From the NCBI GenBank assembly GCA_022749815.1, contig JAKIWV010000005.1:23315-87314 (forward strand): a stretch of DNA of 64,000 nt. Reading direction: 5' to 3'. The notes below the pieces were generated by a model that saw nothing but the letters and a program-made list of their open reading frames with translations, made no database searches and was not told where the DNA came from. This DNA is from Thermoplasmata archaeon. Its GTDB lineage: Archaea > Thermoplasmatota > Thermoplasmata > Lutacidiplasmatales > UBA184. The position numbers and the translations under genes were made by a program. This document shows, piece after piece, positions 454 through 33,505 of this stretch (positions are counted from its first letter, which is position 1; every line of letters begins with the position of its first letter).

Positions 454-1119
454 GTGCCGGTCAACCGCCTGTCGATCGCCGGAAGTCCCTACCTTGGAGT
501 GTACCTCAGAGTCTCGGACCGTGGTGTGGTAGCGTCGCCGTCGCTCTCGGAGGCCGCCGGCCGCGAAGTCGAGCGTCTGTTCGGGGTTCCCGTAATTCGG
601 ACCACTGTGCTCGATTCCGAATTGGTGGGGTCCTTTCTTGCGCTGAATTCCTTCGGCGCGATCGTCGCGGAGGAGCCCGACGCCAGAGAGCTCCAACGAC
701 TCGATGCGTTCGGCCCGGTGACGGTGGTCCGGACGCTCCAAAACGCGCTCGGCAACAACGTTCTCGCGAATGACCTCGGGGCGCTGCTCCACCCCAGCTT
801 GTCCGATGCCGCGGCGACCCGGATCGGTGAAGCGCTGCGCGTCCCGGTCACGCGGGGCACCGTGGCGGGTCTGGGGACGGTGGGGATGGCCGCGGTGGCC
901 ACCAACCGGGGCGTCGTAGTGCATCCTCGGGCCACCGACGCCGAAGCCGCAGTACTCCGGGAGACGCTCAAGGTCCCGGTCCATCGGTCCACGGCGAACT
1001 TCGGGGTCCCGATTGTGGGGGCCTGCGTAACGGCCAATTCCCGGGGGATCCTCGCCGGATCCCTGACGACGCCGGTCGAGTTCGTCCATCTCCAAGAGGG
1101 ATTTCAGATCCTGGAGTGA
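454..1119 (+). CDS. eif6: translation initiation factor 6 (aIF6)
   Basis: GSPYLGVY, LGNNVLAND.GALLHP, TANFG...VGAC..ANSRG...G..TT..E motifs; operon context. Confidence 0.95.
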   Translation: MPVNRLSIAGSPYLGVYLRVSDRGVVASPSLSEAAGREVERLFGVPVIRTTVLDSELVGSFLALNSFGAIVAEEPDARELQRLDAFGPVTVVRTLQNALGNNVLANDLGALLHPSLSDAAATRIGEALRVPVTRGTVAGLGTVGMAAVATNRGVVVHPRATDAEAAVLRETLKVPVHRSTANFGVPIVGACVTANSRGILAGSLTTPVEFVHLQEGFQILE

Positions 1120-1151
1120 ACCGAACCCGCGGCCCGGAGCACAGACCCGCT

Positions 1152-1946
1152 TCAATCGACGGAGGTTCGCTCAAAAATCGAAACGACGCTCACGCCCTCG
1201 AAGCCACACGGGCGGTACAGCTGTTCCCCGAGGGTTACGGAGCGGGTGGTCAACTGTACCCCCCGGGCGCCGTCATGGACCGCCTCTTCGGTGGCCCGGA
1301 GGACGACCGCGGTGGCAACACCCTGTCCCCGCCATTCCGGCGCCGTTTGCACGTGCTCGATGGAGGCGAGAGATCCGATCCGGCTGAGGTCGCACGAGCC
1401 AGCCATCGAGTCCCCCATGAATCCCGCGAAGGTCCGACGACCGGGTTTGTCGGCCTGGCTGGAATAGAAACTCACCCGGTCCGAGGCACCCGGGCCCGAC
1501 TCCCCCCTTTCCTGTTCGACCCGGTAGGAGAGGGTAAGCCAGGCCGGTCGGAGGAACGGGTCCACGCGCCGGACCGTGATCTCGGGTTGGGGCCGCGCCG
1601 TGACCACGCCACGGAACGCGAGGAGCCCGAGCGGACGCTCGTGGAAACCCTCCCCGAGGAGAGATCCTCCCAGCCGGCTCCGGACCTCCTCGCCGAACAG
1701 CATCACCCTTCGACCTGGGATGCCGAGCGCGCGGAACGTCGGTTCGGCCTGGGCCCGGATCTCTTCCCATTCAACCGGGGGTTCCGTCGCACCGACCAGA
1801 ATCTGGTTGGCCCAGAGAACGGCCCGGTACCGGGGGTTTGTAACGACACGGGCCCCGCGCAGGCGTCGTACCTTGCCGACCCATCCTCGTCGTTCTCGCT
1901 CGGCTTCAAGAAAGTCGACGACCGTCGGATGGGACAAGAACGGCAC
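1152..1946 (-). CDS. GNAT family N-acetyltransferase
   Basis: C-terminal acetyl-CoA motif VQTAPEWRGQGVA and LYRPCGF; probable GTG start at 1946 after GGAG, downstream of rps17e. Confidence 0.8.
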   Translation of the reverse strand: MPFLSHPTVVDFLEAERERRGWVGKVRRLRGARVVTNPRYRAVLWANQILVGATEPPVEWEEIRAQAEPTFRALGIPGRRVMLFGEEVRSRLGGSLLGEGFHERPLGLLAFRGVVTARPQPEITVRRVDPFLRPAWLTLSYRVEQERGESGPGASDRVSFYSSQADKPGRRTFAGFMGDSMAGSCDLSRIGSLASIEHVQTAPEWRGQGVATAVVLRATEEAVHDGARGVQLTTRSVTLGEQLYRPCGFEGVSVVSIFERTSVD

Positions 1947-1963
1947 GTACCCGTGCGCTCCCG

Positions 1964-2188
1964 TTACGTTGCCCGGCGACGCTTGACGTACCGAGTGCAG
2001 TACCCGGCGATCCGATTGGCGAGCTTCTTGTAGACAACGCGCGCGTGGCCGTCGACTTCGACCCGGAGGTCGGTGAGCTCGAGGACCTTCTCCTTGTTGT
2101 GCGCGAAATCTCCGGTGAACGCTTCGGGATAGTGTCGGACGAGGTCGATGGCGACCCGTTTGATGTAGGTTTGCCGGATGCTCCCCAT
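1964..2188 (-). CDS. rps17e: 30S ribosomal protein S17e
   Basis: MGSIRQTYIKRVAIDL...F..DF.HNK...KKLANRIAGYCTR; 74 aa C-terminal part of the long 1964..3052 ORF; TTTATAA box upstream at 2214-2220. Confidence 0.95.
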   Translation of the reverse strand: MGSIRQTYIKRVAIDLVRHYPEAFTGDFAHNKEKVLELTDLRVEVDGHARVVYKKLANRIAGYCTRYVKRRRAT

Positions 2189-2423
2189 GCGCGGCGCGCC
2201 GACCCACGGTCGGTTTATAACCCTATCTTTGCGACGGGAACCGTTGTCCGAGTGGGTCCCACCGCCGAGCCGGGACCGGTTTCCGACGCGCGGGGTCGGG
2301 ACAAGAACCATATAGCTTTCGGACCCTAAAACGAAGGGTGACCGGGAGCAGCGAGAACCGCCTCCGGGCCCTGCGCGGTCCGCCGTCGGGTTCCGTCCTC
2401 GTTTGATCGTAGGTGACCCCTCG

Positions 2424-3935
2424 ATGTTAGCCGACGATATGGAGCCCCTTCCAGCACCGGTCGTTCGGCCTCGCCACGTCCTCGTTCTCGACCTATCGAA
2501 GAGCATGCTCGCCCCACTGCCGGACCCTTCCGGGGTCCAAGGCACGCGGCGGAAGATCGAAGTCGCGCGCACCGCGGTGTATCGCATCCTGGAGAACGCC
2601 GAGGCCACCGGAGCGTTCTTCGGACTCGTCACGTTCACGGACAGCGCGCGCGTCGCGGTGCCGCTCACGGAGATCCGACACGAGAACCTTCCGTACATCG
2701 AGAGCCTCATCTCGATGCTGACCCCCTCGGGCCGGTCGGCGATATGGGACGGCATCGCGCTCGGAGCCGACCTGCTGCGCAGACCCACCGGCGAGGTCGC
2801 TGGCACTCTTGCGCTCGTGACGGACGGGTGGGACAATGCATCGAGCCGGTTCCGTGCTCCGGCCTCGGAGCCCTTGACCCCCGAATCGAGTCGGCGGCTC
2901 GACGTGGTTCCCCACATCCTGCCCAACTCCTCCCAACTTACGTTGCGCATCATCGGCATCGGGAGCGGGTCCGAGCGCGACAAGGGCGTCGACTCGGAAC
3001 AGATGAACGGCCTGGTCGAACAGCTGCGGGGGCGGGCGAACGCGGGCGGCATCGCCGCCGAAGTGACCTACCAAGAAGTCGTTACCAGCACTGACCTGTT
3101 CTCCCAGATGGTCAACTCCTTCATCGACGTGGGCTATGAAGGGGCGCGTCCCCTCGAGGATCTCCATCCGGATGAGCTCGCGGAGCACGCGGCGCGGGCC
3201 GCGAAGGCGCTGAAAGCACCGGGGGAGCACGCCACCATCTCGCAGCTCAGGAACCGACGGGACCTTCCCTCTGCTCCCGCCGAGACGGGGGCCGGTGCGC
3301 TGCCCGCCGATGTCGACGTGCTCGAGCTTCAGGGAGGGACCTTGCCTCCCCATCTCACAGAGCGATACGGTCCTCTTGGTGAAGTGGTCGAGGCGTTCGT
3401 CGCGCGGGACTACGCCAGTGCGATGAACCGTTTGTTCCGCGCCCAGTCGCTCCTTCCCGCGCTGAGCCGATATTACTGGGAGGCCCGAATCCACTACGCC
3501 CGGGGCGAAGTGGTCGAGGCCGCTCGGTCGTTACTTCACGCCTGGGTCGAAGCCGACCGGCTGCCGGCCGAGGCCCGCGGCCGGATCGGCCGACGGTTGG
3601 CGCTGCTCCAAAGCCGCATCCAGAACGACTCCGAAACCGAGACGCTGGTCCGCTTCATGGACGAGACGCAACACCGGCTCGAGCGGAAGGAACCCGAGCT
3701 CGGTCGCCTGCTCGAGGGGATCTTCGAAAAGCTCCTCGAGCTCCGGACCACCTACCAACTCGCCCGGGTCGGGGGCACTGACCAGTCCTTAATGCAGGGG
3801 GCGATCCAGCACGAGAATTCCGTCGAGGAGATCTTCGGGCTGTTGCAGGATATACGTCTCCGGAACACCCAGCGGGACACGGTCGCCGACGGGGCGCTTG
3901 ATTTTATGGAAATATGCCTCGCGGAGATGCGCTGA
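2424..3935 (+). CDS. vWA domain protein with C-terminal TPR-like helical region
   Basis: MIDAS DxSxS (VLDLSKSM), GLVTF, LVTDG, IIGIG strands; C-terminal YYWEARIHYARGEVVEAARSL TPR-like helices; GGTGA SD before ATG 2424. Confidence 0.85.
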   Translation: MLADDMEPLPAPVVRPRHVLVLDLSKSMLAPLPDPSGVQGTRRKIEVARTAVYRILENAEATGAFFGLVTFTDSARVAVPLTEIRHENLPYIESLISMLTPSGRSAIWDGIALGADLLRRPTGEVAGTLALVTDGWDNASSRFRAPASEPLTPESSRRLDVVPHILPNSSQLTLRIIGIGSGSERDKGVDSEQMNGLVEQLRGRANAGGIAAEVTYQEVVTSTDLFSQMVNSFIDVGYEGARPLEDLHPDELAEHAARAAKALKAPGEHATISQLRNRRDLPSAPAETGAGALPADVDVLELQGGTLPPHLTERYGPLGEVVEAFVARDYASAMNRLFRAQSLLPALSRYYWEARIHYARGEVVEAARSLLHAWVEADRLPAEARGRIGRRLALLQSRIQNDSETETLVRFMDETQHRLERKEPELGRLLEGIFEKLLELRTTYQLARVGGTDQSLMQGAIQHENSVEEIFGLLQDIRLRNTQRDTVADGALDFMEICLAEMR

Positions 3936-3958
3936 AGCCGCTGTCAGAGGGGTAATCG

Positions 3959-5149
3959 ATGACCGTCAAGACGACGCCCAAAACGAAGGTCAAGCGGGCG
4001 CCGCGCAAGGCCGACGAAACCGGCCCCTCCGCTGCCGCCGCGCGAATCGCTGTCGTAGGGATCCCCGCCTCCGGGAAGACGACTTACTTCCGCTTCCTTT
4101 CGGGGCACTTCGGCCTGAACTTGCCGATCACCTACGTCCCCGCCCGCGTCGACTCCAACTCCCTCCCGATCTACGGTGACCTCGAATCCGACGTGATCCT
4201 CGAAGAGACGACCTACGAGACCACGGACCCAACCGACCCAGAGGGGAGTCTCGAGGCGACGACCCGGTACTACGTGAATCGCCCGATGGAAGACCCCAAG
4301 AAACTGTGGGTCGAACTCGCCGCATCGCGCGAAGAGCAGGGCGTCCTCACCAAGTATCCGTTGCCCACGAAATTCAACCAGTTCGTCGAAATGAAGATGC
4401 GCTTTCGGTTCGGCAGCAAGGACCCGACAGCGCCCGGCTCCCGGCCCATGATCATGCATACCATCGACGAAGCCGGCGGAATCATCTCGGATTACTTCAC
4501 CTATGACCGTCTTTGGCTCACGTCGCCCGAGGGTCAGGTCGATGAGAAGACGTGCCGGGTCATTCCTCATTTCGAAACGTGGCGCCCGGACCGGCAAGAA
4601 CTCTGGCGCCGGGGCCTGACGCTCCTCGGCCGATTCGTCGTGGAAGCCGACGGGATCATCCTCCTGCTCTCTCCGTCGCTCCCCTCGTTGCGGGACCAGG
4701 CCCAACAGGTGAACCTGGCCCGCGGGGTTCTCCGCTACGTGAAGGCCCGCAAGATCCCGCTCGTGATCGCGATCTCCAAGGCGGACCTGCTCAAGGACTT
4801 CTACAGCGAGATCGACCATGTGCTGAAGGACCGGTCCTACCAGAGCGAGTTCGATTCCCAGGAGTTCTTACTGCGCCGCGACGGGGCGGGCATGGGCACG
4901 ATACTCGTCGCCCACGAAGGGCAGGGAATCTCCACGAAAGACGACGTGTTCCTGGTCTCGTCGGCGGTCTCGACCGGCGAGGGGCGTCCGCTGCTGTGGA
5001 CGGATTCCGGGACGGTGGAAACCGGTCCGGCGGGAACGAGCTCCGGGACCCCGGCCCATGCGGGGATACCGGTGATGGTCAACACGCCCCTGCCTCTCGC
5101 CCGGATATGCGAACGGGTGCTCTCGAAGGAGTCGGCCGGAGCGAAGTGA
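3959..5149 (+). CDS. TRAFAC-class P-loop GTPase with insertions
   Basis: G1 GIPASGKT, G3 DEAG, G4 SKAD, G5-like VSSA; ADGIILLL strand. Confidence 0.85.
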   Translation: MTVKTTPKTKVKRAPRKADETGPSAAAARIAVVGIPASGKTTYFRFLSGHFGLNLPITYVPARVDSNSLPIYGDLESDVILEETTYETTDPTDPEGSLEATTRYYVNRPMEDPKKLWVELAASREEQGVLTKYPLPTKFNQFVEMKMRFRFGSKDPTAPGSRPMIMHTIDEAGGIISDYFTYDRLWLTSPEGQVDEKTCRVIPHFETWRPDRQELWRRGLTLLGRFVVEADGIILLLSPSLPSLRDQAQQVNLARGVLRYVKARKIPLVIAISKADLLKDFYSEIDHVLKDRSYQSEFDSQEFLLRRDGAGMGTILVAHEGQGISTKDDVFLVSSAVSTGEGRPLLWTDSGTVETGPAGTSSGTPAHAGIPVMVNTPLPLARICERVLSKESAGAK

Positions 5150-8100
5150 TGGCATCCCCGGGCCCCAAGGCCGCCGATCCCACCGCCGGCGGGTCAACGG
5201 AACCCATCGCGGTCGTATGGTGTCGCCAGGTCGACAACGAGGCCGAGAGTCCCGGGTACACGGCCCTTCCCAACGACTTCACCGGCTACCAGGAGACACT
5301 GGACGCGATTCGAATCGTCGGGAACCTGGCCGTAAACATCTCCGACACCCAGGATTACTGGGATCCGGATCCGGCGCTGCCGCTCTCGTACTACCGGAAC
5401 CTGTTCCTGTACCCTGCGTACGGCGGCACCTACACGTGCCTCGGTCGGATGTTCCTCTCGACCGAGGACCGTCCACGTCTGGGCATGAAGACCCTCGTCC
5501 TCGACACGGCGCGTTTGTTGGCGACGCCCTCCTTCGGCGAGACGATCCTTCGATGGTACGAATCGATGGGCGGCGGACGCCACGACCAGCGACCCCCACC
5601 GCCGCCCGACCCCAAGCTCTACCCGCTCGTCGGGGAAGGCTTCCTGTTCTACCGGGGTTCGACGGAGCCTGTCCTCTTGATCGCTGCCGACGAATGGGAG
5701 GCGACGATGGAGACGATCTTCGACTACGTGCGCGCGCTCCCGGCCTCGCTGCTGACGCTCGGCGCTATCTTGGCCTTCCCGTACTTCCTCCCCGAGCCGA
5801 AGACCAACCTTGCCGAATTCGCCGAAGCGACTCCTTTGGCGCTCGCCACCCTCCGGGTTCCTCGAGGCGAGTCGACCGGTGAACGCCATCGGAAGCGGGT
5901 CCAGAGCTGGGAGGAGGCCCCTTTCACGCTCTACGACCTGACGGCCGGGATCCCGGCGCCGGCGGGGAAAGGGAAGGAAGTCGTGCCGCTGATCGTACAG
6001 TACGTTCGCGACCACGCATCGGCCAAACTATCGCCGGTGACCGAGCGGGTAGACCGCGTCGAGCTTCGCACGTTGCGCGCGCGCCTCGCCGACCCGGATC
6101 GACAAGGAGGGAAGGACCGGCGCAAGGAAATGTGGCGTCTCGCGACGGCGATGGAGAGCACCGCGCTCTTGCTCCAACGGCCCCGAGGCCGACGGCTGGA
6201 ACTCAGTCCCGAGCTCTCTCGGCGAGCTCAGGAGTATCTCCGGGCCCACGCCGGGGAGGAACCCACGGAGGAGATCCGGCCGGCCGACCTTCCTCCGTCG
6301 GCCCCGGCGTTCGTGCCGGATGCCCAGGTAGCCGGCCAGCTCCCGCCGTGGTTGCAGCGGGGGAGCGCGCCTCCCCCCGCCCTCCAGCGAGCCAGCAAGG
6401 TCGAAGTGATCCCGATGTCCGTAAAGGACGACCCTTCGCTCCTCAAAGTCGCCGAGCCGACGGCCGGTGCCGCCGCGGCGACCGCCGGAGGCGGGGCGCT
6501 TCGTCGGCAAGTCGAGGCCGACCTCATGAGGTACCTCGACGAGCGGTTGTCCAATGTGAATCCGGTGCCCCCCTCGACCTGGACCCAAGCGCTCGAGGAC
6601 CGGCTCGCGACCCGATTCAATTCGGCCGTGGAGCGACGTCTCCAAGAGCTTCCGGCGCCGGTATCGGCGACCCCGCTCGACCCTCTCCGCCTGGACGGGG
6701 TCGTCCAGGAACGCCTCCGACCGGCCCTCGCGGACCAGGCAGCCCGGCAAGCGGAGGCCGTCAAGGAGGTGCGGACCGCCCTGGAGCAACGATTCGGCGC
6801 GTGGACCGCCGTCCAACAGCAGGCGCTGAGCTCGCTGACCGACCGGCTCCTGGCGCGGACCGCCGAGCTCGAAGCCCGCCTCGGCCAAGACTCGTCGACC
6901 CGGATCTCCCAGGCCGAGGAACGAGTTCGAGCCGACCTTCGCACGATCGTGAATCAGGAACTGGACCGCGGTGTGCGGAGTCTCGTCGAACCGAAACTGC
7001 AGGATCTGAAGGCCCGCTCCGAGGAGACTCTCCGTCAATCCACATTGGAGATCCGCGCCCAATTGCGGGACTCCCTGAACCAAGCCCTGACCGACGTGAA
7101 ACAACGGGCGCAAGCGTCCGAGGAGAACCTGCGCGGGGCGCTGGTGGCCCAGCTCGACCTCCACTTGCGCGAGGCCCAGGACCGCGACGAGACCCAACTC
7201 AAGGAGCTCGAACAAAAGCTCCGGGCGGCGGGCGAATCCCGTATCACGGAAGCCGAACAGCGGCGAGTCAAAGAACTCCAGGAGATCGAACGACGCCTCT
7301 CCCTTCTAATCGACGGGCGAGCGCGCGAGGTACAGGAAAAGGTGTCGGCGGCGCTGCGCGAAACCGAGACCCGGACCGCGGGCCAGCTCGACGAGCAACT
7401 CGGCGCGCTGGAAGCCCGCGGTGACCGAAAGGTCGATTCGAAGCTCGACGAGCTGCGCGAATCCGAGATGCACTCGGTCGCAGACCTGCAGGTTCGCCTT
7501 CAGTCCTACGCCGACCAGAAGCTCCGAGAGAGCATGGATCGGGAACGGGAAAAGGTCCTCGAGCTGTTGGCTCGCCTGAAAGGCGAGACCGAAGCGTCCC
7601 TGGCCCACGCGCTGGACGCCCCGACGGCCGAGCGGATCGCCAAGGACCAGTTCCAGCGCAGCACCGACACCTTCAAGGCGGACATTCAGCAGCTCATCGA
7701 CCTGCGCGCCATGGCGGTCGAGGAACGGTTCTCCCGGGAACACGCCGACCTGACGCAACGTCTTGAAGGCCTGCGGACCGACGTTGCCGACCGGAGTCGC
7801 GACAACACCCGGCTCGAAGACGCCGTTCGGGCCGAGCTGGAAGAGTTGGACCGCAAGATCGTCGTGCTGACCGACCGACTCGTGCCCGTCGTCCGGAAGG
7901 CGTGGACCCGTCTCGCCGAGGTCGAGCGGGGCTCCTCGAGCTCGGCCGAATCGGACCTGAAGTACGCCCAGCTGCGCCGGGAGTTCACGCACGACCTCCG
8001 GCGGATCGAGACCGACCTCGCAGAACGCACGAGAGAGATCCGCGAGCGCGTGGAAGGCACCATCGCCAACCAAGGCCGAGTTTGGCTTACGCTGGTCCGC

Positions 8101-8328
8101 CAGCTCTCCCAGATGACCGAGGAGCGACGCGCCATCGAGGAGGCCCGGGCGCCCACCGTTCTGACCCGGCCCCGCGCCAATTCGCCCCCCGACAGCGTGG
8201 ACCGGGAGCTGGCCTCGCTCTCCGACCTGACGCGTTCGGGTCTGGGGGGGGAGGAGGCGGTTGAAGACGCGCCCGAAGAGCCGGAGACGAACTCGCGCCG
8301 GCGCACGCGCCGTCCTTCGGGGCGATAG
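5149..8328 (+). CDS. 1059-aa protein: N-terminal globular module (longin/DENN- or GAP1-N-like), Pro-rich linker, long coiled coil
   Basis: ATG overlaps the GTPase stop (TGATG); E/Q/R/L heptad-rich region over roughly the C-terminal 550 aa; domain assignment is inference. Confidence 0.8.
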   Translation: MASPGPKAADPTAGGSTEPIAVVWCRQVDNEAESPGYTALPNDFTGYQETLDAIRIVGNLAVNISDTQDYWDPDPALPLSYYRNLFLYPAYGGTYTCLGRMFLSTEDRPRLGMKTLVLDTARLLATPSFGETILRWYESMGGGRHDQRPPPPPDPKLYPLVGEGFLFYRGSTEPVLLIAADEWEATMETIFDYVRALPASLLTLGAILAFPYFLPEPKTNLAEFAEATPLALATLRVPRGESTGERHRKRVQSWEEAPFTLYDLTAGIPAPAGKGKEVVPLIVQYVRDHASAKLSPVTERVDRVELRTLRARLADPDRQGGKDRRKEMWRLATAMESTALLLQRPRGRRLELSPELSRRAQEYLRAHAGEEPTEEIRPADLPPSAPAFVPDAQVAGQLPPWLQRGSAPPPALQRASKVEVIPMSVKDDPSLLKVAEPTAGAAAATAGGGALRRQVEADLMRYLDERLSNVNPVPPSTWTQALEDRLATRFNSAVERRLQELPAPVSATPLDPLRLDGVVQERLRPALADQAARQAEAVKEVRTALEQRFGAWTAVQQQALSSLTDRLLARTAELEARLGQDSSTRISQAEERVRADLRTIVNQELDRGVRSLVEPKLQDLKARSEETLRQSTLEIRAQLRDSLNQALTDVKQRAQASEENLRGALVAQLDLHLREAQDRDETQLKELEQKLRAAGESRITEAEQRRVKELQEIERRLSLLIDGRAREVQEKVSAALRETETRTAGQLDEQLGALEARGDRKVDSKLDELRESEMHSVADLQVRLQSYADQKLRESMDREREKVLELLARLKGETEASLAHALDAPTAERIAKDQFQRSTDTFKADIQQLIDLRAMAVEERFSREHADLTQRLEGLRTDVADRSRDNTRLEDAVRAELEELDRKIVVLTDRLVPVVRKAWTRLAEVERGSSSSAESDLKYAQLRREFTHDLRRIETDLAERTREIRERVEGTIANQGRVWLTLVRQLSQMTEERRAIEEARAPTVLTRPRANSPPDSVDRELASLSDLTRSGLGGEEAVEDAPEEPETNSRRRTRRPSGR

Positions 8329-8375
8329 CGTAGGCCGTCCGACCGGAACGATCCCTCGGCAGGGTCTAGCACCCC

Positions 8376-8927
8376 GTGGAGGTATCGGGTGCTCTCGTGA
8401 CGAGGCGTGCGACGCGCCGGCCTTCGGTCGCGGTGCTCGGCGGAACCTTCGACCATTTGCATGTCGGCCACCGGGCGCTGCTCGAGGCCGCTTTTGCTCG
8501 GGCCGACGTGGTCAAGATCGGCCTCACGTCGGACCGCTTTGTCCGTTCCGAACGGAAGCCGATCGCCGGCCGCGTCCAGTCCTACCCCGTGCGCCGGCGC
8601 CACCTTCGGACCTTCCTGCGTCAGCGGTTCGGCCGCCGGGCCTGGTCGATCGTCGTCCTGAACGACATGTGGGGCCGGGCAGTGGCCCCGGGCGCCGATC
8701 TCCTGGTGCTCTCGGTGGAAACCCGCCGAGCGGCGCGACCGATCAACGCCGAGCGCCGCCGACGGGGACTCGCTCCCCTTCGGGTGTACGCCGTGCCACT
8801 CGTTCGGGCCCGCGACGGACGGCCGGTCGCCTCTCGACGGATCCGCGCGGGGGAGATCGACGTCGCGGGAAATCCTCTCCGAACGGCGCGCCCACCTCGC
8901 CCAAGTGCCGGGCCGGCGAAGGGTTAA
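8376..8927 (+). CDS. coaD: archaeal phosphopantetheine adenylyltransferase
   Basis: GGTFDHLHVGH, GLTSD, LVLSVET, IN..R...GL, ASRRIRAGEID. Confidence 0.9.
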   Translation: MEVSGALVTRRATRRPSVAVLGGTFDHLHVGHRALLEAAFARADVVKIGLTSDRFVRSERKPIAGRVQSYPVRRRHLRTFLRQRFGRRAWSIVVLNDMWGRAVAPGADLLVLSVETRRAARPINAERRRRGLAPLRVYAVPLVRARDGRPVASRRIRAGEIDVAGNPLRTARPPRPSAGPAKG

Positions 8928-8953
8928 TCTAAGCTAGTCCGGTCGGACGGGCG

Positions 8954-9175
8954 ATGGAAACGTACCTCCGCGTGAGCTTCCACAGCGAGGGCGCGAAGCC
9001 CTCCGAGATCGCGGACCGTCTCGTCGGCTTCGGGTTTGTCCCCACTCAGGGCAACTACGATTTCCTCTACGATTGGCGCGGTCCCGCCACGCCGGACCAA
9101 CTGCTGGACCTGAGCGACGAAGTGTCTCGGCTCCTTCGGGGCTACCGGGTCATCTTCGAGATCGAGACGGTGTAG
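8954..9175 (+). CDS. small conserved hypothetical protein (73 aa)
   Basis: ATG start, typical codon usage, globular alpha/beta pattern. Confidence 0.75.
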   Translation: METYLRVSFHSEGAKPSEIADRLVGFGFVPTQGNYDFLYDWRGPATPDQLLDLSDEVSRLLRGYRVIFEIETV

Positions 9176-9358
9176 CCCGCTTCCGCGAACCAGCCGTCGA
9201 CCGACCCTGAGCCGGCCGCTCGGAACGGGAGCCGAATGTTTACCACCTACGGCGGTCACTCGAATGTAACCGCCGAGGGTGCCCCGGGGGAATTCGGCCG
9301 GTCCCGAGACGAACTCGGCGGTCAAGCTTATGCTCCGCCGGCGATAGAACGTCGCGCC

Positions 9359-9685
9359 GTGGGGAGCTACAGCGTACGCCCGGCCGTACGGGCCGAGTTG
9401 ACCGTGGACCGTATCGTCGCCGCATGTGAGGCCGAGTTCGGTTTCGCCGAGCGGTCCGGAGACGCCGTCTCCAGCCGGTACGGAGCGATCGACTCGCTCG
9501 TTGTGCGCCCGGGAAAGGGCGAGTTGCTCGTCGAGCTGCGAATGAACCCGAAGGTGGCCAACGACGTCGCCGGCGAAACCGTCCGTCGGTACAACCGGTT
9601 CCTCGCGACGCTGACGGGGTACACGGCGAAGGAACGGGCCAAGAAGGCCCAGAAGGCGGCGAAAGCGGCCGCGCCGGCAGGGTAG
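9359..9685 (+). CDS. conserved archaeal protein (DUF5611-like)
   Basis: YGAI, RRYNRFL..LTGYTAKERAKK C-terminal motif; probable GTG start. Confidence 0.7.
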   Translation: MGSYSVRPAVRAELTVDRIVAACEAEFGFAERSGDAVSSRYGAIDSLVVRPGKGELLVELRMNPKVANDVAGETVRRYNRFLATLTGYTAKERAKKAQKAAKAAAPAG

Positions 9686-9687
9686 TC

Positions 9688-11262
9688 GTGGCCACGCCCC
9701 TTCCCGCACCGCCGGGCCCGGAGATCGACTGGCTCCGGGCGGAGGTGTCCCGCTACTTTCCCGTCTACGAGGTCCGGATCACGCCGGTGTCCCTCGTCTT
9801 GTTGGTCCACGCGGATGCCACGACCCTCGAGGAAAGGTTCGACGGGCTGCGTCGGGATCTATGGCCCAAATTCTACGTCCCCCAACTACGGTACGTTCAA
9901 GGAGAATACACCCTCGAGATAGTTCGGCGAACCGTTCGGCGCAGCTCGGGGTTCTGGGTCAACCTGGCCCTCCTCGCGGCCACCGTCGTTTCCACCGCAT
10001 TCGCGGGCTCATTTCTCTGGCTCTCCTACGTGGGCAGCGCTACGTTGGTCCCGGCGGACTTCCTGTGGGGTGGACTCTACTTCGCCGCGCCCCTGCTGGC
10101 GATCCTCGGTCTCCACGAACTTGCCCATTACGTCGTGGCGCGGCACCATCACGTGGAGGCCTCGCTCCCCTTCTTTCTCCCGGTCCCGCCGCCCTACCTG
10201 ATCTTCGGCACATTCGGCGCCTTCATCAGTCTCCGCGAGCCAATCCCCTCGCGGAAGGTCCTCTTCGACATCGGCGCCTCGGGGCCCCTGGCCGGGTTCC
10301 TAGTGGCGATCCCGGTCACGATCGCGGGGATGTTCCTGAGCCTCCACGCGCCGGTGCTGCCCCTCACCAACTGTGGCCCCACGATCCTGGGGGTGAACTA
10401 CGGCAACCTGCTGGTCGGACTCCCTCTCGCCTGGCAGCTCCTCGCCCTCTTCGTTCCCAACGCCGCGGCGATCGTGAGCCTTCATCCCCTCGCATTGGCC
10501 GGGTGGGTCGGCCTGTTGGTCACGTCCATCAACTTGCTTCCGGCCGGTCAGCTGGACGGGGGCCACGTCTTTCGGGCGCTCTTCGGCGACCGATCGCGCT
10601 ACGTGAGCTACGCGGCGGTGATCTTCCTCGCCCTCATCGGATTCGTTACGCTGTACCTCGGATGGCTGCTCTTCGCCGTGTTGATCATCCTCCTGGGCGT
10701 TCGCCATCCGCCCCCCCTCAACGACGTGAGTCCACTCGGTGGGCGACGCGCCCTCGTCGGTGCGCTCGTCGTGGCGGTGCTCGTCGGGGGATTCGTACTC
10801 GTCCCCATCTCCACGCCCGGCGATAGCTTCTCCCTCGAGAAGCTGACGGCCTCGCACGTTTCTGGAACGGGGTTCGGGGTCGCCTCGGTGATCAACGTGA
10901 CGGTGGCGAACCACGATTCGGTAGTGCATGGCTACGGGGTCGCGGCCAACGTAACCCAGGTTACCCTCCAGAACACGTCGATCGGCGGCCCACTGTCGGG
11001 GCCAAGGCTGGCTGCCTTCCTCGCGAATTCTACATGGACCATTGTGCTCCCCGATGGGACCATCGTCACGGAGAAGGGCGTCGGGAAATGGGCGCTGCCG
11101 AGCAACGAGTTCCTCACGCTCGCCGCGCAGCACAACGGTACGCTGAGGATCACCTACACGAACACCCAGACCGCGACGGTGGACGTCAGCTTCACCGCTT
11201 CCCAGTTCTGTAACGCCTCCGGGGGCGGGCCGACCAAACCGCAGACCGTCTCCGTCTATTGA
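9688..11262 (+). CDS. site-2 protease (peptidase M50) with C-terminal extracytoplasmic beta domain
   Basis: HELAH, GTFGAFI, IGASGPLAG, NLLPAGQLDGGH; multiple TM helices. Confidence 0.93.
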   Translation: MATPLPAPPGPEIDWLRAEVSRYFPVYEVRITPVSLVLLVHADATTLEERFDGLRRDLWPKFYVPQLRYVQGEYTLEIVRRTVRRSSGFWVNLALLAATVVSTAFAGSFLWLSYVGSATLVPADFLWGGLYFAAPLLAILGLHELAHYVVARHHHVEASLPFFLPVPPPYLIFGTFGAFISLREPIPSRKVLFDIGASGPLAGFLVAIPVTIAGMFLSLHAPVLPLTNCGPTILGVNYGNLLVGLPLAWQLLALFVPNAAAIVSLHPLALAGWVGLLVTSINLLPAGQLDGGHVFRALFGDRSRYVSYAAVIFLALIGFVTLYLGWLLFAVLIILLGVRHPPPLNDVSPLGGRRALVGALVVAVLVGGFVLVPISTPGDSFSLEKLTASHVSGTGFGVASVINVTVANHDSVVHGYGVAANVTQVTLQNTSIGGPLSGPRLAAFLANSTWTIVLPDGTIVTEKGVGKWALPSNEFLTLAAQHNGTLRITYTNTQTATVDVSFTASQFCNASGGGPTKPQTVSVY

Positions 11263-12290
11263 GTCTCGGACGCGTTGCCGTCCCTCACGTACACCCGGAA
11301 CTCCCGGCTCAGACTCCGATGGACGCGCTGAAGGATCGCGAGCTCCTGTCGCGCGTCGAGGGACGGCAACTCGGTCCCTTCGGGAACGACGATCGCCAGT
11401 CGACCGCCGGAGCGGACCCGTGGGGCCCAGGCTTCGAGCGTCCGGCGCCACAGTCGGTCGGGCCGCTCGCCCCGGGTTCCGGAGGCACGCCCGTAGGGCG
11501 GGTCGGTGATGAGGGCATCGAAACTGCCGGCGGGAAACTCCACGGCCGCCTCCGCGGCGTCGGCCTGTCGGAGCGTTTCGGGGGTCTGCCCGAAGTGGGT
11601 GAAGTTTTCGAGGGCGCCGCGGACCATCGTCGCGCTCATGTCGATCCCGACGGTTCGCGCGCCGAGCAGCGCCGCTTCGAGTAAGAGTGACCCTGTGCCT
11701 ACGAACGGGTCGACCACGCGGTCGTGAACCCCCACATGAGCCAGATTGACGAGTGCTCGGGCCCAGGTCGGCGCGAGGGTGACCGGCCGCTGGAACGGGA
11801 GCCGGGGCGTCCGTCGTTCCGAGACGGCGGCGCGTCCAGCCACTCCAACCTCCTCGTAGAACTGAATCATGCTGGGAGACGCAGCTTCGAGCCAGAACCG
11901 CCGGTTCGGGTTACCGAGCGCGATCCGCCCGCCTCCTGAGACGTAGGCGTGCCCGAGTCGACGGACCAGTTCCGGAGGCCTCATGCTCGTACTCCCCGAC
12001 ACCCATTGAATGGCGGCCGACGTCCGGGACTCGCCGGCCTGTACGAGCCGGCCCTCCAGCTCCTCGATGCTCGCCTCCGGCCACGCCTCGGCGCAACGGT
12101 GAGCGAGCGCCAACCGGCCCGCGAGCTCGATGGCAGCCTCTCGGTCGGGGAGCTCGACCCAACCACGCCCGGCGGATTGGGCAGGCCCCAAGGATTCGGC
12201 CACCCGACCCCCGAGACGTTCTGCCGTCGCGACTAGCTCCGCGCGAGCGAGAGACCTATTCTCGCCGGACAGCCAGACCGTTACGATCAC
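11256..12290 (-). CDS. tRNA (guanine-10-N2) methyltransferase, Trm11/TrmG10-like
   Basis: LSGEN..LA.AE N-terminus, PFQRPVTL.P..ARALVNLA, DPFVGTG, TDPPYG, VHRSL.R; GTG start overlapping the upstream stop. Confidence 0.85.
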   Translation of the reverse strand: MIVTVWLSGENRSLARAELVATAERLGGRVAESLGPAQSAGRGWVELPDREAAIELAGRLALAHRCAEAWPEASIEELEGRLVQAGESRTSAAIQWVSGSTSMRPPELVRRLGHAYVSGGGRIALGNPNRRFWLEAASPSMIQFYEEVGVAGRAAVSERRTPRLPFQRPVTLAPTWARALVNLAHVGVHDRVVDPFVGTGSLLLEAALLGARTVGIDMSATMVRGALENFTHFGQTPETLRQADAAEAAVEFPAGSFDALITDPPYGRASGTRGERPDRLWRRTLEAWAPRVRSGGRLAIVVPEGTELPSLDARQELAILQRVHRSLSREFRVYVRDGNASETQ

Positions 12291-12769
12291 AGGCTCGCGG
12301 GCTCCGACCGGTGCCAGCGAGTCAGCCGGGTTCGCACGGACCTGGTGTGGTAGCCCTCCCAGTAGAGATGGCCGCAGAGGGAGCAGGCATACACCGCCGT
12401 TCCTCCCGAGAGCACATCGGCGGGCAAGGTCTCGCGGTCCGCGTTGGGTGGAACGGCGGACAGTGGCGTGAGGGAACCATTGCACAGCGAGCAACGTTCG
12501 AACCGAACTTCCTGGCGGAGTGTCGGAAACGCGGCCCCGAGCTCCTCCATTTGACCGCCGATATCGGTCCGGGTGAGGAGGATCGAGTCGGGCAGGCGAA
12601 CGGCAAGGCCCCGGTCTCGGGTCAGCACCCGCCGGCCTTCTTCCTTCGCTCGAAACACGATGGCGTCATCGGTCGCGCCGTGGGCGTACTCGGTGTCGTA
12701 CCCGAGGAAGCGAAGATACCGGGCGAGCCGGCCGAGCATCTCGTCGACCAACCACCGGGGCTCGCTCAT
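12287..12769 (-). CDS. Mut7-C RNase domain protein
   Basis: VDEMLGRLARYLRFLGYD, LTRD, RC..CNG, C..CG..YWEG.H. Confidence 0.93.
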   Translation of the reverse strand: MSEPRWLVDEMLGRLARYLRFLGYDTEYAHGATDDAIVFRAKEEGRRVLTRDRGLAVRLPDSILLTRTDIGGQMEELGAAFPTLRQEVRFERCSLCNGSLTPLSAVPPNADRETLPADVLSGGTAVYACSLCGHLYWEGYHTRSVRTRLTRWHRSEPASL

Positions 12770-12856
12770 CCCCTAGGAAGCGGGCCGAGTCGATAAACCG
12801 CTTTTCCAAGGGCCCCCGACGCAGGAATTATCTGTCCGGCTCCCCACCCGGAGTTC

Positions 12857-14242
12857 GTGCGTCTCTTCGGTACGAACGGGATCCGGGAAGTCGTCGGCGA
12901 GCGGATGACCGCCCCGTTCGTCACCTCGATCGCGGCGGCGATCGGCCGTGCCTACCCTGTGGGGGTCCCCGTCGCCGTCGGCTGGGACGGGCGAACCTCG
13001 AGCCCGGCGTTCGCCCGGTTGGTCTCCGGCACGCTCGCGGCGGCGGGTCACTCGGTCGTCGAGCTTGGGTTGCTGCCCACGCCGGCGATCCAGTACAGCC
13101 TGCGTTCCGTGGGCGCCCAGCTCGGAGTGGTCATCACCGCCTCGCACAATCCCCCGGAGTACAACGGGATCAAGTGCATCGGAGCCGACGGACTCGAACT
13201 CCCCCGCATCGACGAGGAGCGCATCGAGGCCGCCGTAGATGCCGGCGAGGGGCGGAGTGTCTCCTACGATCGAGTCGGTGAGATTCGCTCGGACGACCAT
13301 GGGGCCGAACGATACCTGCACGGCATTCTCTCGATGGTACGCCGCGACGCGATCATCCAGAAACACTTCCGCGTACTCCTCGACTGCGGCAACGGCGCGT
13401 CGGCGCAGACGAGCCCCTCCCTCCTCCGGCGCTTGGGATGCCGCTTCACGACGCTCAATGGCCAGGTCGACGGGACCTTCCCGGGCCATTTGTCAGAACC
13501 CACCGAGCAGAACCTGCAAGAGCTGGTCCGCTCAGTTCCCGCTCTCGCCGTGGAATTCGGAGTGGCGCACGACGGCGACGCGGACCGCGCGGTCTTCGTC
13601 GACGGGCGAGGGCACTACGTGCCTGGCGAGCGGATCCTCACCTGGTTCGCTCGAGAGTACGTGCGGCGGCACCGGGGGGGATTGGTCGTGATCCCAGTGA
13701 CCGCCTCCCAGAGCGTGGAGGAGGTCGTCGAGGCCGAGGGGGGCCATGTGCTGTACACTCGTGTGGGCTCTCCATCGATAACGCACGCCATGCAAGAACG
13801 AGGGGCCGTGTTCGGTGGAGAGGACAACGGCGGGTACGTCTTCCCCCAATTCCAACTCGCTCGTGACGGAGCGATGACGCTCGCTGCCGCCCTCGACCTC
13901 CTGACCCAGCTAGGGACTACGCTCGAAGAAGCGTTGCGGGATCTCCCGCAGTACCACGTCTCGAAGGAGAAAGTCCCCTGCCCCGTGGCGCTTCGAGACG
14001 AGGTCATGGCTCGTCTGACCGTGGAGCTCGGTCAGGGGGCCGAGCGCGTCGTCACCCTCGATGGGATCAAAGTGTATCAAGGCCGTGGATGGGTGCTCGT
14101 TCGGCCCTCCGGCACCGAAGCGTTCTTCCGGATTTTCTCCGAGGACCGCGACCCGGACGCTGCTCGACGACGCGCGACGGGGCTGGTCGCCCGCGTCACG
14201 TCGATCGTGGCGGAGCTCGAGGGGCCGGCGGGCCGGTCCTGA
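12857..14242 (+). CDS. glmM: phosphoglucosamine mutase / phosphomannomutase family
   Basis: FGTNGIR, TASHNP, DGDADR, VRPSGTE. Confidence 0.85.
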   Translation: MRLFGTNGIREVVGERMTAPFVTSIAAAIGRAYPVGVPVAVGWDGRTSSPAFARLVSGTLAAAGHSVVELGLLPTPAIQYSLRSVGAQLGVVITASHNPPEYNGIKCIGADGLELPRIDEERIEAAVDAGEGRSVSYDRVGEIRSDDHGAERYLHGILSMVRRDAIIQKHFRVLLDCGNGASAQTSPSLLRRLGCRFTTLNGQVDGTFPGHLSEPTEQNLQELVRSVPALAVEFGVAHDGDADRAVFVDGRGHYVPGERILTWFAREYVRRHRGGLVVIPVTASQSVEEVVEAEGGHVLYTRVGSPSITHAMQERGAVFGGEDNGGYVFPQFQLARDGAMTLAAALDLLTQLGTTLEEALRDLPQYHVSKEKVPCPVALRDEVMARLTVELGQGAERVVTLDGIKVYQGRGWVLVRPSGTEAFFRIFSEDRDPDAARRRATGLVARVTSIVAELEGPAGRS

Positions 14243-14304
14243 GCCCCATCTTTCGTGGGAATCCCAAAGGGTTAATCGGCCGACGCCGTCCCGCCCTGCG
14301 GCGC

Positions 14305-15267
14305 ATGGGGGACCAGGATCTTTCGGCGGAGCTGTCGAACCAGGGGTACCAGCTCGTCGGCCGCCACAGCGCCGTCAAAACATGCTACTGGACCCGACAG
14401 TCGTTGCTGAACGGACGCGATTGTTACAAGGGAAAGTTCTACGGGATCCAGAGCCACCGCTGCGTGCAGATGTCCCCCGCCATCGATTCGTGCAATCTCC
14501 ACTGCCGGTTCTGTTGGCGGAACCAGGGGTGGGAGAACGACGAATCGATGCCCGAGTACGACGACCCAGAAACCCTGCTCGACAAGTCGATCGAGGCCCA
14601 GCAACGGGCCATCTCGGGGTTCAAAGGCGACGCCGACGTGGCAGAGGCCCGGTGGGAGGAGGCCCGACAGCCGCGGCACATCGCCATTTCGCTCACGGGC
14701 GAGCCGACGCTCTACCCGAAGATGAACCGGTTCCTCGAGCTCTGCCACGAGCGGGGCATCACGACGTTTCTAGTCACGAACGGGACGAATCCGGACGCGC
14801 TCCGGCACTTGGACCCGCTGCCGACGCAGCTCTACGTATCGGTCACTGCGCCCAACGCGGCAGTGTTCCGGCGTCTCACGCTGCCGGCCCAGGCGGACGC
14901 CTGGCAGCGTCTCGGGGAGTCGCTCCAGATCGTTCGCGGACTTCGGACGCGGCGAGTGATCCGTCACACGCTGGTCCAAGGGTGGAACCTGGGCTGGGAA
15001 GACCAGTACGCCGAGCTCGACCTGATGGCCCGACCGGACTTCATCGAGCCGAAGGGGTACGTGTACATGGGCAAGTCGCGGCAACGGCTCTCCTGGGCGC
15101 ACGTGCCGACCCACGAGGCGATCCGAGCGTTCGCGCGCCGGCTGGCGGCCCGCGTCGACTACCGTTTCCTGGATGAATCGCCGGAGTCAAAGGTCGTGTT
15201 GCTCGGCCTGCGGGAGGAGGGACAGTTCCTCCCCGGACTCGGCCCACTCTCCTCCGCCGCCGGCTGA
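14305..15267 (+). CDS. taw1: 4-demethylwyosine synthase (radical SAM)
   Basis: HSAVKTCYWT, CYKGKFYGIQSHRC, CNLHCRFCWR, AISLTGEPTLY. Confidence 0.95.
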   Translation: MGDQDLSAELSNQGYQLVGRHSAVKTCYWTRQSLLNGRDCYKGKFYGIQSHRCVQMSPAIDSCNLHCRFCWRNQGWENDESMPEYDDPETLLDKSIEAQQRAISGFKGDADVAEARWEEARQPRHIAISLTGEPTLYPKMNRFLELCHERGITTFLVTNGTNPDALRHLDPLPTQLYVSVTAPNAAVFRRLTLPAQADAWQRLGESLQIVRGLRTRRVIRHTLVQGWNLGWEDQYAELDLMARPDFIEPKGYVYMGKSRQRLSWAHVPTHEAIRAFARRLAARVDYRFLDESPESKVVLLGLREEGQFLPGLGPLSSAAG

Positions 15268-15291
15268 ACCGCGACGGCGGTGCGCCTGCGG

Positions 15292-15456: not shown

Positions 15457-15514
15457 CGAGCGGTTGAGGGCGCGGACCGATATTTAACCCCAATGGGCGG
15501 GCGACGGCTCGAGC

Positions 15515-33442: not shown

Positions 33443-33505
33443 ACTCGTCCGGGGACGTTCGGCGCCTTAGCGCTTGCCGCGAGCGGTCGGGGCCGAGGCG
33501 CGCCC

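Follow-up and report, generated by a model that had tools for sequence, protein, structure and literature searches.

Do archaea outside the Asgard lineages pair a guanosine triphosphatase (GTPase) with a regulator of the DENN type? DENN modules are core regulators of eukaryotic membrane traffic. According to the part of the Asgard study on which we draw, eukaryotes were their only known source until they were found in Asgard archaea (10.1101/2020.10.19.343400). The question is raised by three adjacent genes, here g1, g2 and g3 (together the trio), in a stretch of 64,000 nucleotides (the window) from a Thermoplasmata archaeon, i.e., positions 23315-87314 of contig 5 in a genome of 2.08 Mb assembled in five contigs. 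A reading made from the sequence alone (hereafter the sequence-only reading) had proposed that these genes encode a vWA protein, a GTPase and a DENN-like coiled-coil protein. We find that the trio is a real, undescribed, family-restricted three-gene GTPase module; its presumed kind, a GTPase with a longin/DENN-type regulator, is already known. The genes are the following:

2424-3935, plus strand: g1, 503 aa, vWA protein with a conserved, presumably helical C-terminal half
3959-5149, plus strand: g2, 396 aa, P-loop GTPase of divergent sequence; its N-terminal tail is basic and rich in proline, and a long insert separates the G1 and G3 motifs
5149-8328, plus strand: g3, 1059 aa, composed of a DENN-like head, a linker rich in Pro and Ala, a long charged rod, and a C-terminal domain conserved among relatives

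The trio is conserved as a unit in one archaeal family

The head of g3 matched 24 places other than its own, and 20 of these loci, from seven genera, were retrieved for the analysis of synteny. The other four were left out: one contig ends 1.1 kb upstream (G006:C19), two matches are fragments (G005:C129 and G005:C77), and one lies on a short contig (G024:C188). The order g1-g2-g3 on a single strand was found in all 20 loci (in one of them, L022, the start of the contig truncates g1), always with one GTPase gene per locus. The ratio of nonsynonymous to synonymous substitution rates (dN/dS) was 0.05-0.27 in three within-genus pairs with dS near 1 (0.06-0.18 for g1 and 0.05-0.10 for g2). The trio is under purifying selection, and the conserved order together with these ratios shows that it consists of real genes rather than chance open reading frames (ORFs) of GC-rich DNA. 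Across the related loci, identity to the proteins of the window was 42-89% for g1, 60-92% for g2, 40-91% for the g3 head and 29-76% for the remainder of g3, compared with 53-85% for eIF6 and 66-89% for rps17e, i.e., g2 is more conserved than eIF6.

The range of the trio is narrow. Of the 24 other genomes searched in the family, 22 gave a match to the g3 head; of the 16 searched from other families of the order and class, none did. The g2 profile matched 30 of the 37 genomes of the family, including the unpublished G121, and in 263 genomes of other families of the class it gave a single match, to 38 residues of the P-loop. Against 1.84 billion representative proteins, the g3 head had 45 matches, 40 of them at E ≤ 1e-30. 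The relatives are labelled in databases as "Thermoplasmata archaeon", with one "Candidatus Lutacidiplasmatales archaeon". We scored 316 homologues of g3 and 354 of g2, and among the matches listed nearly all are unnamed or "hypothetical". The trio is thus confined to one family of Thermoplasmata, which makes it real but narrow, and it defines three protein families without annotation.

Within this family the genes come and go together. The seven genomes without g2 all belong to genus g5 (genera are numbered separately from the genes and are always called by the word genus) and are 92-97% complete. In the five of them that were tested, the profiles of g1 and of the g3 head also matched nothing, whereas coaD was found in all five; one of these genomes, G229, is unpublished, and without it the joint absence stands at four of four. 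Three genomes (G128, G200 and G218) show the empty site, in which rps17e adjoins coaD about 300-400 nt away with no trio in between. The trio occupies the same site between rps17e and coaD in most genera. In genus g3 it lies intact among unrelated genes with no coaD neighbour, having moved as a unit. The co-conservation on which the sequence-only reading had made itself depend was therefore observed, in presence, in joint absence and in relocation. The trio behaves as one unit that is old in the family, vertically inherited, strongly constrained and dispensable; since it was lost in small-genome members of one genus, it is not essential.

The g2 protein is a divergent GTPase

The GTPase label given to g2 stood up well, given the following motifs:

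4058-4081, plus strand: G1/P-loop, GxxxxGKT (g2 residues G34-T41)
4466-4480, plus strand: G3/Walker B, D170-E-A-G-G174
4775-4786, plus strand: G4, S273-K-A-D276, a variant of the guanine-specifying NKxD

These motifs and G5 (SSA, S335-A336) are invariant in 27 of 27 sequences, as is T137, which aligns with a conserved Thr column of the DO-GTPases. In hhalign comparisons, the G4 motif of g2 aligned with the NKxD of Ras-family proteins and with the TKxD of DO-GTPases. The residue that follows the glycine of DxxG is Gly in g2, Gln in the Ras-family proteins of this class and Glu in the DO-GTPases aligned. A Gly at this position would fit a catalysis that is completed by a partner.

No curated family of Pfam or NCBIfam matched g2 over its threshold, and the matches below threshold were to P-loop and GTPase families. 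Pfam Ras did not match g2 at E ≤ 1, and PF00071 was absent from this genome and from five of five family genomes at E ≤ 1e-5. With hhalign, g2 aligned with 14 Ras-family proteins of the class at a probability of 76% over only 39 columns, around G4, and with MMR_HSR1-type proteins at 86% over 26 columns. The alignment with 12 DO-GTPases of other Thermoplasmatota was much longer (177-187 columns, from G1 to G4, 91-92%, E about 1e-6). The DO-GTPases themselves scored 96.4-96.6% against the Ras-family and MMR_HSR1 controls, and are thus closer to these controls than g2 is to the DO-GTPases. After its own cluster, the look-alikes of g2 by features in the ESM Atlas were clusters with DO-GTPase1 and DO-GTPase2 (score 0.93, to be taken as a lead only). 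DO-GTPase2 was matched below threshold by five of the 27 g2 homologues (best E 0.012), and the g2 of the window matched no DO-GTPase family. A six-frame search of the genome with PF19993 gave nothing at E ≤ 0.01, and the g2 profile matched sequences of solved structures in P-loop stretches only (E ≥ 0.034). Lastly, g2 has no DxxGE glutamate, no zinc-ribbon-like Cys pairs and no hydrophobic segment, there is no paralogous second GTPase at any of the 20 loci, and the protein is about twice as long as the Ras-family G domains aligned (about 160 aa). In DO-GTPases, paired paralogous GTPases, N-terminal zinc ribbons and transmembrane segments are common without being universal.

By none of the thresholds applied does g2 belong to the DO-GTPases (PF19975/PF19993): it falls below the Pfam cut-offs and has D-E-A-G-G instead of DxxGE, whose conserved glutamate is a stated feature of these proteins (PMC7159879). 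Nor is g2 a small GTPase of the Ras, Rab or Arf type, given the lack of a Pfam Ras match and the 39 hhalign columns. Judging from these motifs and profiles, g2 is probably a very divergent GTPase of the TRAFAC class, and a weak likeness points to the DO-GTPases as its nearest relatives.

The distribution of Ras-like GTPases within Thermoplasmata is itself strikingly uneven. PF00071 matched in 49 of the 61 genomes searched in the class (e.g., at loci L052-L065), with up to 35 matches per genome (G032 and G084). It was found neither in this genome, nor in five of five genomes of its family, nor in five of five genomes of family f8.

The g3 protein is predicted to have a DENN-like head on a rod

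No family of Pfam, NCBIfam or PADLOC was matched by g3. We modelled its head (residues 15-365) from 21 sequences and obtained three lobes, with a predicted local distance difference test score (pLDDT) of 79.7 and a predicted template modelling score (pTM) of 0.82. The pLDDT falls below 50 past residue 369. The protein can be divided as follows:

5191-5580, plus strand: head lobe 1 (residues 15-144), longin/roadblock-like, with the order beta-beta-alpha-beta-beta-beta-beta-alpha
5581-5952, plus strand: head lobe 2 (residues 145-268), alpha/beta, with a minimal P-loop-NTPase-like topology and no Walker motifs
5989-6243, plus strand: head lobe 3 (residues 281-365), helical, in the position of dDENN, with helices at 281-287, 291-314, 321-343 and 354-365
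6244-6558, plus strand: Pro/Ala-rich linker (residues 366-470; P 14%, A 17%), with a PPW motif in 13 of 21 homologues
6559-7830, plus strand: residues 471-894, charged, poor in proline and variable in length, presumably forming a helical rod
7831-8118, plus strand: C-terminal domain (about residues 895-990), with a basic tail behind it

The comparison of the head model with the Protein Data Bank (PDB) by Foldseek gave three matches at E ≤ 0.001, all of them to DENND1B or DENND1A bound to Rab35 (1.3e-5 to 7.1e-5, probability 1.00, 393-416 columns). The next four entries were DENND10 (8p0v_M, 4.1e-3), followed by chains of FLCN-FNIP2 (6nzd_I and 8dhb_I) and C9orf72-SMCR8-WDR41 (7mge_C) at 1.0e-2 to 3.6e-2, and the first unrelated entry came at 5.5e-2. 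In the alignment with DENND1A (6ekk_B), residues 13-333 of the model correspond to residues 7-361 of the chain. An independent search of lobe 1 (residues 15-144) against all representatives placed longin and roadblock folds at the top, and then TRAPP, MON1-CCZ1, GATOR1, DENND1A and MglB. DENN proteins were the only clear matches that covered more than one lobe of the head. The model thus has the features that define a DENN module, i.e., an N-terminal longin-type lobe, an alpha/beta core and a helical lobe, in this order in one chain. It argues, with moderate strength, for a DENN-like tripartite fold.

The conservation of the head peaks in the first two strands of the longin-like lobe and the loop between them (W24-P35 invariant, with a DT.DYW.P.P loop), and in an Arg-rich hairpin with invariant R100, R108 and R110. 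R26 is invariant too, as is S34-P35-G36 (not G-P) ahead of strand 2. In the longins that act as GTPase-activating proteins (GAPs), as described in the part of the source available to us, the catalytic pocket beside the arginine finger is made up of strands 1 and 2 with the loop between them, and a "GP" motif precedes strand 2 (PMC12290439). The comparison of g3 with these longins was made at the level of the sequence alignment.

The rest of g3 is less uniform. Its length in relatives ranges from 559 to 1314 aa, a span accounted for by the rod stretch, which is almost missing in the forms of 559 aa and much longer in those of 1314 aa. Beside this variable rod stands a strongly conserved head, hence it is the head that carries the constrained function and not the rod. 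Residues 470-1000 contain 19% E+D, 17% K+R and 2% P, with two prolines in residues 526-894, and weak matches of the rod were to Apolipoprotein (E 0.027) and to the tail of ZorA (E 0.17). A crude a/d heptad score over residues 471-894 was close to that of shuffled sequences (z = 1.3) and does not show a canonical coiled coil. We have therefore dropped the coiled-coil label of the sequence-only reading in favour of a charged, proline-poor and presumably helical rod. The C-terminal domain has 11 positions kept in at least 90% of 21 sequences, including the forms of 559 aa (D901, P913, W919, E945, R952, R967, E969, Q975, G976, W979 and L980).

Two further proteins, from the scan of 1.84 billion representatives, belong near this family. 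P0266 (866 aa) is a divergent branch with 39% identity to g3 that lacks the otherwise invariant loop between head strands 1 and 2, and P0273 (182 aa) is 30% identical to head residues 81-266.

The g1 protein is a vWA protein with an intact metal site

The vWA label of g1 was fully confirmed. The protein scores over the curated Pfam cut-offs of VWA_2 (34.8 bits for a cut-off of 27, E 2.7e-8) and VWA (28.2 bits for a cut-off of 23.8, E 2.6e-6), and all 20 homologues have a VWA_2 match at E ≤ 1 (best 4.9e-12). Its two conserved parts are:

2478-2867, plus strand: vWA domain (g1 residues 19-148, Pfam match)
3321-3932, plus strand: C-terminal conserved domain (about residues 300-503)

The metal ion-dependent adhesion site (MIDAS) motif consists of DxSxS, a later Ser/Thr and a later Asp. 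In g1 none of these residues (D23, S25, S27, S105 and D134) varies among the 20 sequences aligned. The solved vWA domains closest in sequence are those of BatB-type proteins (E 6.5e-4), and in NCBIfam g1 comes closest to the vWA part of a putative cobaltochelatase subunit (6.3e-5, a score that falls far short of the cut-off). Invariant columns of the C-terminal domain reach the last residue, 503. Profiles of tetratricopeptide repeats (TPR) and related families matched some of the 20 homologues, always below threshold: TPR_2 in four (best E 0.074), TPR_4 in three, ANAPC3 in one (0.0014) and TPR_19 in one. The C-terminal half is thus possibly TPR-like, which is a guess. No transmembrane segment was predicted in g1, g2 or g3.

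A predicted mechanism for the trio

We predicted the complex of g2 with the g3 head in three runs and obtained a median interface score (ipSAE) of 0.45 (0.61, 0.45 and 0.00), where the best control had 0.00. The pLDDT of the partners was at least 70 and at least 21% of the contacts were common between runs. The mark used for such predictions was reached by 58 of 80 solved complexes and by two of 110 mismatched pairs. Passes at 0.60 or under came from seven of those 80 complexes and from both of the passing mismatches. The interface that the sequence-only reading had asked for is therefore weakly supported in silico.

We propose that g2 would bind and hydrolyse GTP, and that the g3 head, with its longin, alpha/beta and helical lobes, would bind g2 and either control or read its nucleotide state. 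We lean, tentatively, towards a head that acts as a GAP on g2 and supplies catalytic residues in trans, because g2 has no Gln or Glu after DxxG and because the longin lobe has invariant arginines beside its invariant beta1-beta2 loop. A guanine nucleotide exchange factor (GEF) like DENND1 would be a less likely activity for the head, and the part of a pure effector or scaffold less likely again. The rod and the C-terminal domain of g3 would probably dimerise the protein and place or anchor the complex in the cell. The MIDAS site of g1 could clamp an acidic residue of a partner, while its conserved C-terminal half would dock onto the complex.

The process served may be the positioning or the assembly of a cellular structure rather than defence, which is our guess. 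A cellular role is favoured because the trio lies at a housekeeping site, evolves slowly, has no effector and matches no defence family. A PADLOC search of the three proteins gave matches at chance level only, to PtuA on the P-loop (E 0.065) and to ZorA on the rod (E 0.17-0.38). There was no effector family among their Pfam and PADLOC matches, in line with the remark of the sequence-only reading that no obvious toxic effector is visible.

Relation to described GTPase systems

Our search of the literature, i.e., of open-access papers without their supplements, found no description of the trio, nor of DENN-like proteins in Thermoplasmatota or in other non-Asgard archaea. The trio matches no characterised system in full, as had been suspected. 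The closest described layout is an Asgard operon that, in the portion of the study used here, encodes a Roadblock (LAMTOR1-like) protein, a Rab-like GTPase and a DENN-domain protein (10.1101/2020.10.19.343400). Both are archaeal operons of three genes with a GTPase beside a longin/DENN-type protein and a third, non-enzymatic adaptor. The adaptor of the trio is however a vWA protein and not a Roadblock protein, and the host is of a Thermoplasmata lineage. The GTPase of the trio is not Rab- or Ras-like, with no Ras-family gene in this genome or in the five family genomes searched. Its DENN-like head matches no DENN profile and bears a long rod.

The eukaryotic DENN modules (the Rab35 GEFs DENND1A and DENND1B, 3tw8 and 6ekk; DENND10; FLCN-FNIP2 and C9orf72-SMCR8) share with the g3 head the predicted order of a longin-like, an alpha/beta and a helical lobe, and they are its best Foldseek matches. 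As regards the eukaryotic GAP longins, the conservation of g3 peaks in the first two strands of the longin lobe, which is the site of their catalytic pocket. Unlike these proteins, g3 has S-P-G before strand 2 and lacks the exact "GP" motif, its partner GTPase is of another type, and its activity is predicted only.

The DO-GTPase-GAP1 systems consist of a TRAFAC-type GTPase followed by a large protein with three globular domains, and some include vWA and coiled-coil proteins, to judge from the sections of the source consulted (PMC7159879). The trio resembles them in that a three-lobed protein is encoded downstream of a GTPase, a likeness of layout and not evidence of homology, and in that DO-GTPases are the best, weak profile match of g2. 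It differs from them in its single GTPase without DxxGE, zinc ribbon or transmembrane segment, in the lack of variable effectors, and in being immobile and slow to evolve. The membership of g3 in GAP1 was tried and rejected: there was no Pfam match at E ≤ 1, PF20013 (GAP1-N2) gave nothing in the genome at E ≤ 10, and hhalign of the head gave a probability of 0.19% against eight GAP1-N1 proteins. GAP1-N2 was compared by a search of the genome with its hidden Markov model (HMM), the profile-profile comparison covering GAP1-N1 proteins. The GAP1-N1 profile itself matched nothing among solved structures. The sequence-only reading had cited ternary systems of vWA, GTPase and GAP1 as known; this merges the MoxR-vWA ternary systems with the DO-GTPase-GAP1 systems, which are separate in the accessible part of Kaur et al. 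2020 (PMC7159879).

Two loci of true DO-GTPase systems in Thermoplasmatota deserve mention on their own. Locus L048 (G556:C8:1-12000), at 1056-6833 on the plus strand, holds a canonical system of the GAP1-N1 type and encodes a calcineurin-like phosphoesterase, a family-less protein of 257 aa, a DO-GTPase2, a DO-GTPase1 and a GAP1-N1 protein of 611 aa; this GAP1 protein has only eight relatives in the large protein collection. Locus L047 (G094:C1:662000-678000), from another Thermoplasmata family, encodes on the minus strand at about 8007-15966 an HSP70-vWA fusion, a zinc-ribbon protein of 1006 aa, a DO-GTPase2, GrpE and HSP70. The locus corresponds to the "HSP70 theme" of GTPase-centric conflict systems, for which most descriptions come from actinobacteria and firmicutes; here it is archaeal.

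The MglA-MglB polarity switch of bacteria and archaea differs from the trio in several ways: two more lobes and a rod are present in g3, g2 has a long insert and about double the length of the Ras-family G domains aligned, and the Roadblock genes of the genome lie elsewhere. With the MoxR-vWA ternary systems and other NTPase-vWA pairs, the trio shares a MIDAS-intact vWA protein, an NTPase and a third large component. It differs from the MoxR-vWA ternary systems since its NTPase is a GTPase and not an AAA+ MoxR, and since it has no effector-associated domains.

The genome has two Roadblock/LC7 genes away from the trio, G000:C2:101140-101388 (plus strand, E 1.2e-10) and G000:C2:427820-428044 (minus strand, E 3.3e-6).

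Weighing the readings

On balance, we find it somewhat probable that the trio is a module with a cellular role, specific to its lineage and passed on vertically, with an unusual GTPase switch at its core that is accompanied by a DENN-like regulator on a rod and by a vWA adaptor. A number of points weigh against this reading. The DENN link of the head rests on one predicted model, for which the Foldseek template modelling scores are low (0.30-0.35) and the root-mean-square deviations high (13-15 Å), and for lobe 2 the matches to AAA+/ORC domains are as good as those to DENN cores. The profiles of DENN, uDENN, dDENN and folliculin gave no match to g3 at E ≤ 1, the DENN HMM PF02141 found nothing in the genome at E ≤ 10, the g3-head profile found no solved relative by sequence, and the ESM Atlas gave no usable match. 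Of the DENN-like label of the sequence-only reading, the part that concerns the fold has thus stood, and no sequence profile has joined it. The rod has no clear heptad pattern. g2 is not a GTPase of the Rab, Arf or Rag type, hence it would be an atypical client of a DENN module, and its AlphaFold2 model from 27 sequences is poor (pLDDT 49.7), such that no conclusion on its fold is drawn from it, the hairpin at 141-151/162-172 ahead of DEAGG included. The complex prediction scored 0.00 in one of its three runs, and passes at such a level are wrong in most cases, unless the pairing was a likely one to begin with. What ties g1 to g2 and g3 is gene linkage alone. In two of the 20 loci, both from the genus of the window, g2 is split in two frames (L014:4898-6084 in G007 and L016:5715-6901 in G008); the switch near residues 156-174 would be either a frameshift or an assembly error. 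The module is dispensable in genus g5. Finally, a search of public sequencing runs listed no RNA run with the trio, and one DNA run with 0.30 of the sampled words.

A quite unlikely explanation is that the trio derives from the DO-GTPase-GAP1 conflict systems as a domesticated or minimal offshoot, where g3 would be a GAP1-like sensor and scaffold, g2 a threshold switch, and the rod or g1 a non-enzymatic effector, in defence or stress sensing. It draws on the ESM Atlas look-alikes of g2, on the sub-threshold DO-GTPase2 matches among its homologues, and on its long hhalign alignments with DO-GTPases compared with the short ones with the Ras and MMR_HSR1 families. The order of a GTPase followed by a large three-domain protein is also that of DO-GTPase-GAP1, GAP1-N2 systems include vWA and coiled-coil proteins in the part of the source that we used (PMC7159879), and other Thermoplasmatota have true DO-GTPase systems (over the cut-off in 36 of 401 genomes). 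Yet g2 stays below the Pfam cut-offs, lacks the DxxGE glutamate, the second GTPase, the zinc ribbons and the transmembrane segments, and is further from the DO-GTPases than these are from the Ras and MMR_HSR1 families. The hhalign and GAP1-N2 comparisons of g3 were negative, and the trio has no variable effector and no PADLOC match. It stays at a housekeeping locus, is inherited vertically and evolves at housekeeping-like rates, in contrast to the conflict systems portrayed in the consulted part of PMC7159879, which are mobile and diversifying.

We give the same low credence to a coincidence of two common folds, longin-like and degenerate P-loop-like, behind the DENN likeness. In that case g3 would be a cytoskeleton-like or tethering rod whose assembly or position is steered by g2 in the manner of MglA, the head being an effector or an anchor only. 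The lack of any DENN sequence signal in g3 fits this idea, as do the rod that takes up more than half of g3 and the separate C-terminal domain conserved in 21 of 21 sequences. It accounts poorly for the specificity of the Foldseek ranking, in which DENN-module proteins or complexes fill the first seven places, each over about 400 columns, and for a rod that varies among forms of 559-1314 aa while the head is strongly conserved. Least probable of all, in our view, is an assembly-chaperone system like the MoxR-vWA or chelatase NTPase-vWA pairs, powered by g2, with g1 docking on a client that needs a metal or cofactor and g3 as a scaffold. The intact MIDAS of g1 and its best NCBIfam match speak for it, as does coaD directly downstream without a terminator-like site in between, and the pairing of an NTPase with a vWA protein is a known chaperone theme in the portion of the source consulted (PMC7159879). 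There is however no AAA+ MoxR-type gene at the locus, the motifs of g2 are those of a GTPase and not of an AAA+ protein, no client gene is consistently linked (genus g3 has no coaD neighbour), and the DENN-like head is left unexplained.

A bolder version of the DENN link seems unlikely to us, if less so than these three. Here the g3 head would be a true and very old DENN relative kept outside the Asgards, and the trio would be a missing link that joins the DO-GTPase-GAP1 pairs of prokaryotes to the longin-DENN regulators of Rab, Arf and Rag GTPases in eukaryotes. GAP1, with its N, M and C domains, would be the prokaryotic longin-DENN-dDENN, the partnership of DENN and GTPase would predate both Asgards and eukaryotes, and it would have been tamed here into a housekeeping positioning machine with a vWA adaptor.

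Genomic context of the trio

The sequence-only reading had described three co-oriented genes with a gap of 23 nt and a TGATG overlap, at host-like GC content between rps17e and coaD. The ORFs, their junctions and the profile matches of both flanking genes bear this out, with rps17e on the minus strand. The features around the trio and at its junctions are:

454-1119, plus strand: eIF6, upstream flank
1152-1961, minus strand: GNAT acetyltransferase gene, upstream flank
1964-2188, minus strand: rps17e (Pfam Ribosomal_S17e, 1.1e-8), divergent from the trio
2214-2222: TATA-type element TTTATAACC, 26 nt from the start codon of rps17e
2298-2348, plus strand: conserved intergenic block of 51 nt with an ATATAG-type element
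2412-2416, plus strand: Shine-Dalgarno-like GGTGA, 7 nt ahead of the ATG of g1, as read from the sequence
5147-5151, plus strand: TGATG, where the g2 stop (TGA, 5147-5149) and the g3 start (ATG, 5149-5151) share one base
8376-8927, plus strand: coaD (NF001985, 2.6e-44), directly downstream of g3

A gene for an M50 peptidase also lies downstream. The GC content is 0.63-0.70 over the trio and 0.65-0.71 in the flanks. g1 and g2 are 23 nt apart (3936-3958), and the TGATG overlap suggests that g2 and g3 are translationally coupled; with the start codons chosen in our analysis, an overlap of these two genes, by 1 or 4 nt, recurs in 13 of the 20 related loci. The gap between g3 and coaD (8329-8375, 47 nt) contains no terminator-like site and coaD follows the trio in 17 of the 20 loci, so coaD may be co-transcribed with it. 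A scan for promoters and terminators, based on a bacterial consensus, found no promoter-like site and three terminator-like sites where 4.3 were expected, none of them between genes.

The spacer of 235 nt between rps17e and g1 has two conserved elements in the spacer alignment. TTTATAACC is conserved, or nearly so, in eight of eight related spacers and is probably the TATA box of a leaderless rps17e. The block of 51 nt is near-identical in five of five spacers of genus g1, the genus of the window, and not conserved in three spacers from other genera; it is possibly a promoter or 5' leader of the trio.

Two plus-strand ORFs, 1116-2033 and 2045-2329, were rejected as genes, being antisense shadows of the GNAT gene and of rps17e. 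The apparent conservation of the second across loci is due to rps17e on the opposite strand. Such shadow ORFs are numerous here, as GC-rich DNA yields many. Elsewhere in the window there is a thiamine pyrophosphate (TPP) riboswitch at 49430-49538 on the plus strand (64.8 bits for an Rfam gathering score of 54.3), and the sole tRNA gene of the 64 kb is a tRNA-Arg (CCT) at 33367-33443 on the minus strand.

Implications

What would stand out in this system is a DENN-like head carried on a rod and paired with a non-Ras GTPase and a vWA protein, in a family seemingly without Ras-family GTPases. Since no transmembrane segment is predicted, the trio may be soluble and workable in vitro. It would then offer a compact three-protein system to ask what a DENN-type module does with a GTPase that has no catalytic glutamine of its own. 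If the DENN-like reading of the head is right, this type of regulator is older and more widespread than thought, or it has arisen twice. If the head is a true DENN relative, or if GAP1 shares its fold, the trio would bear on the origin of the regulators of eukaryotic Rab, Arf and Rag GTPases.

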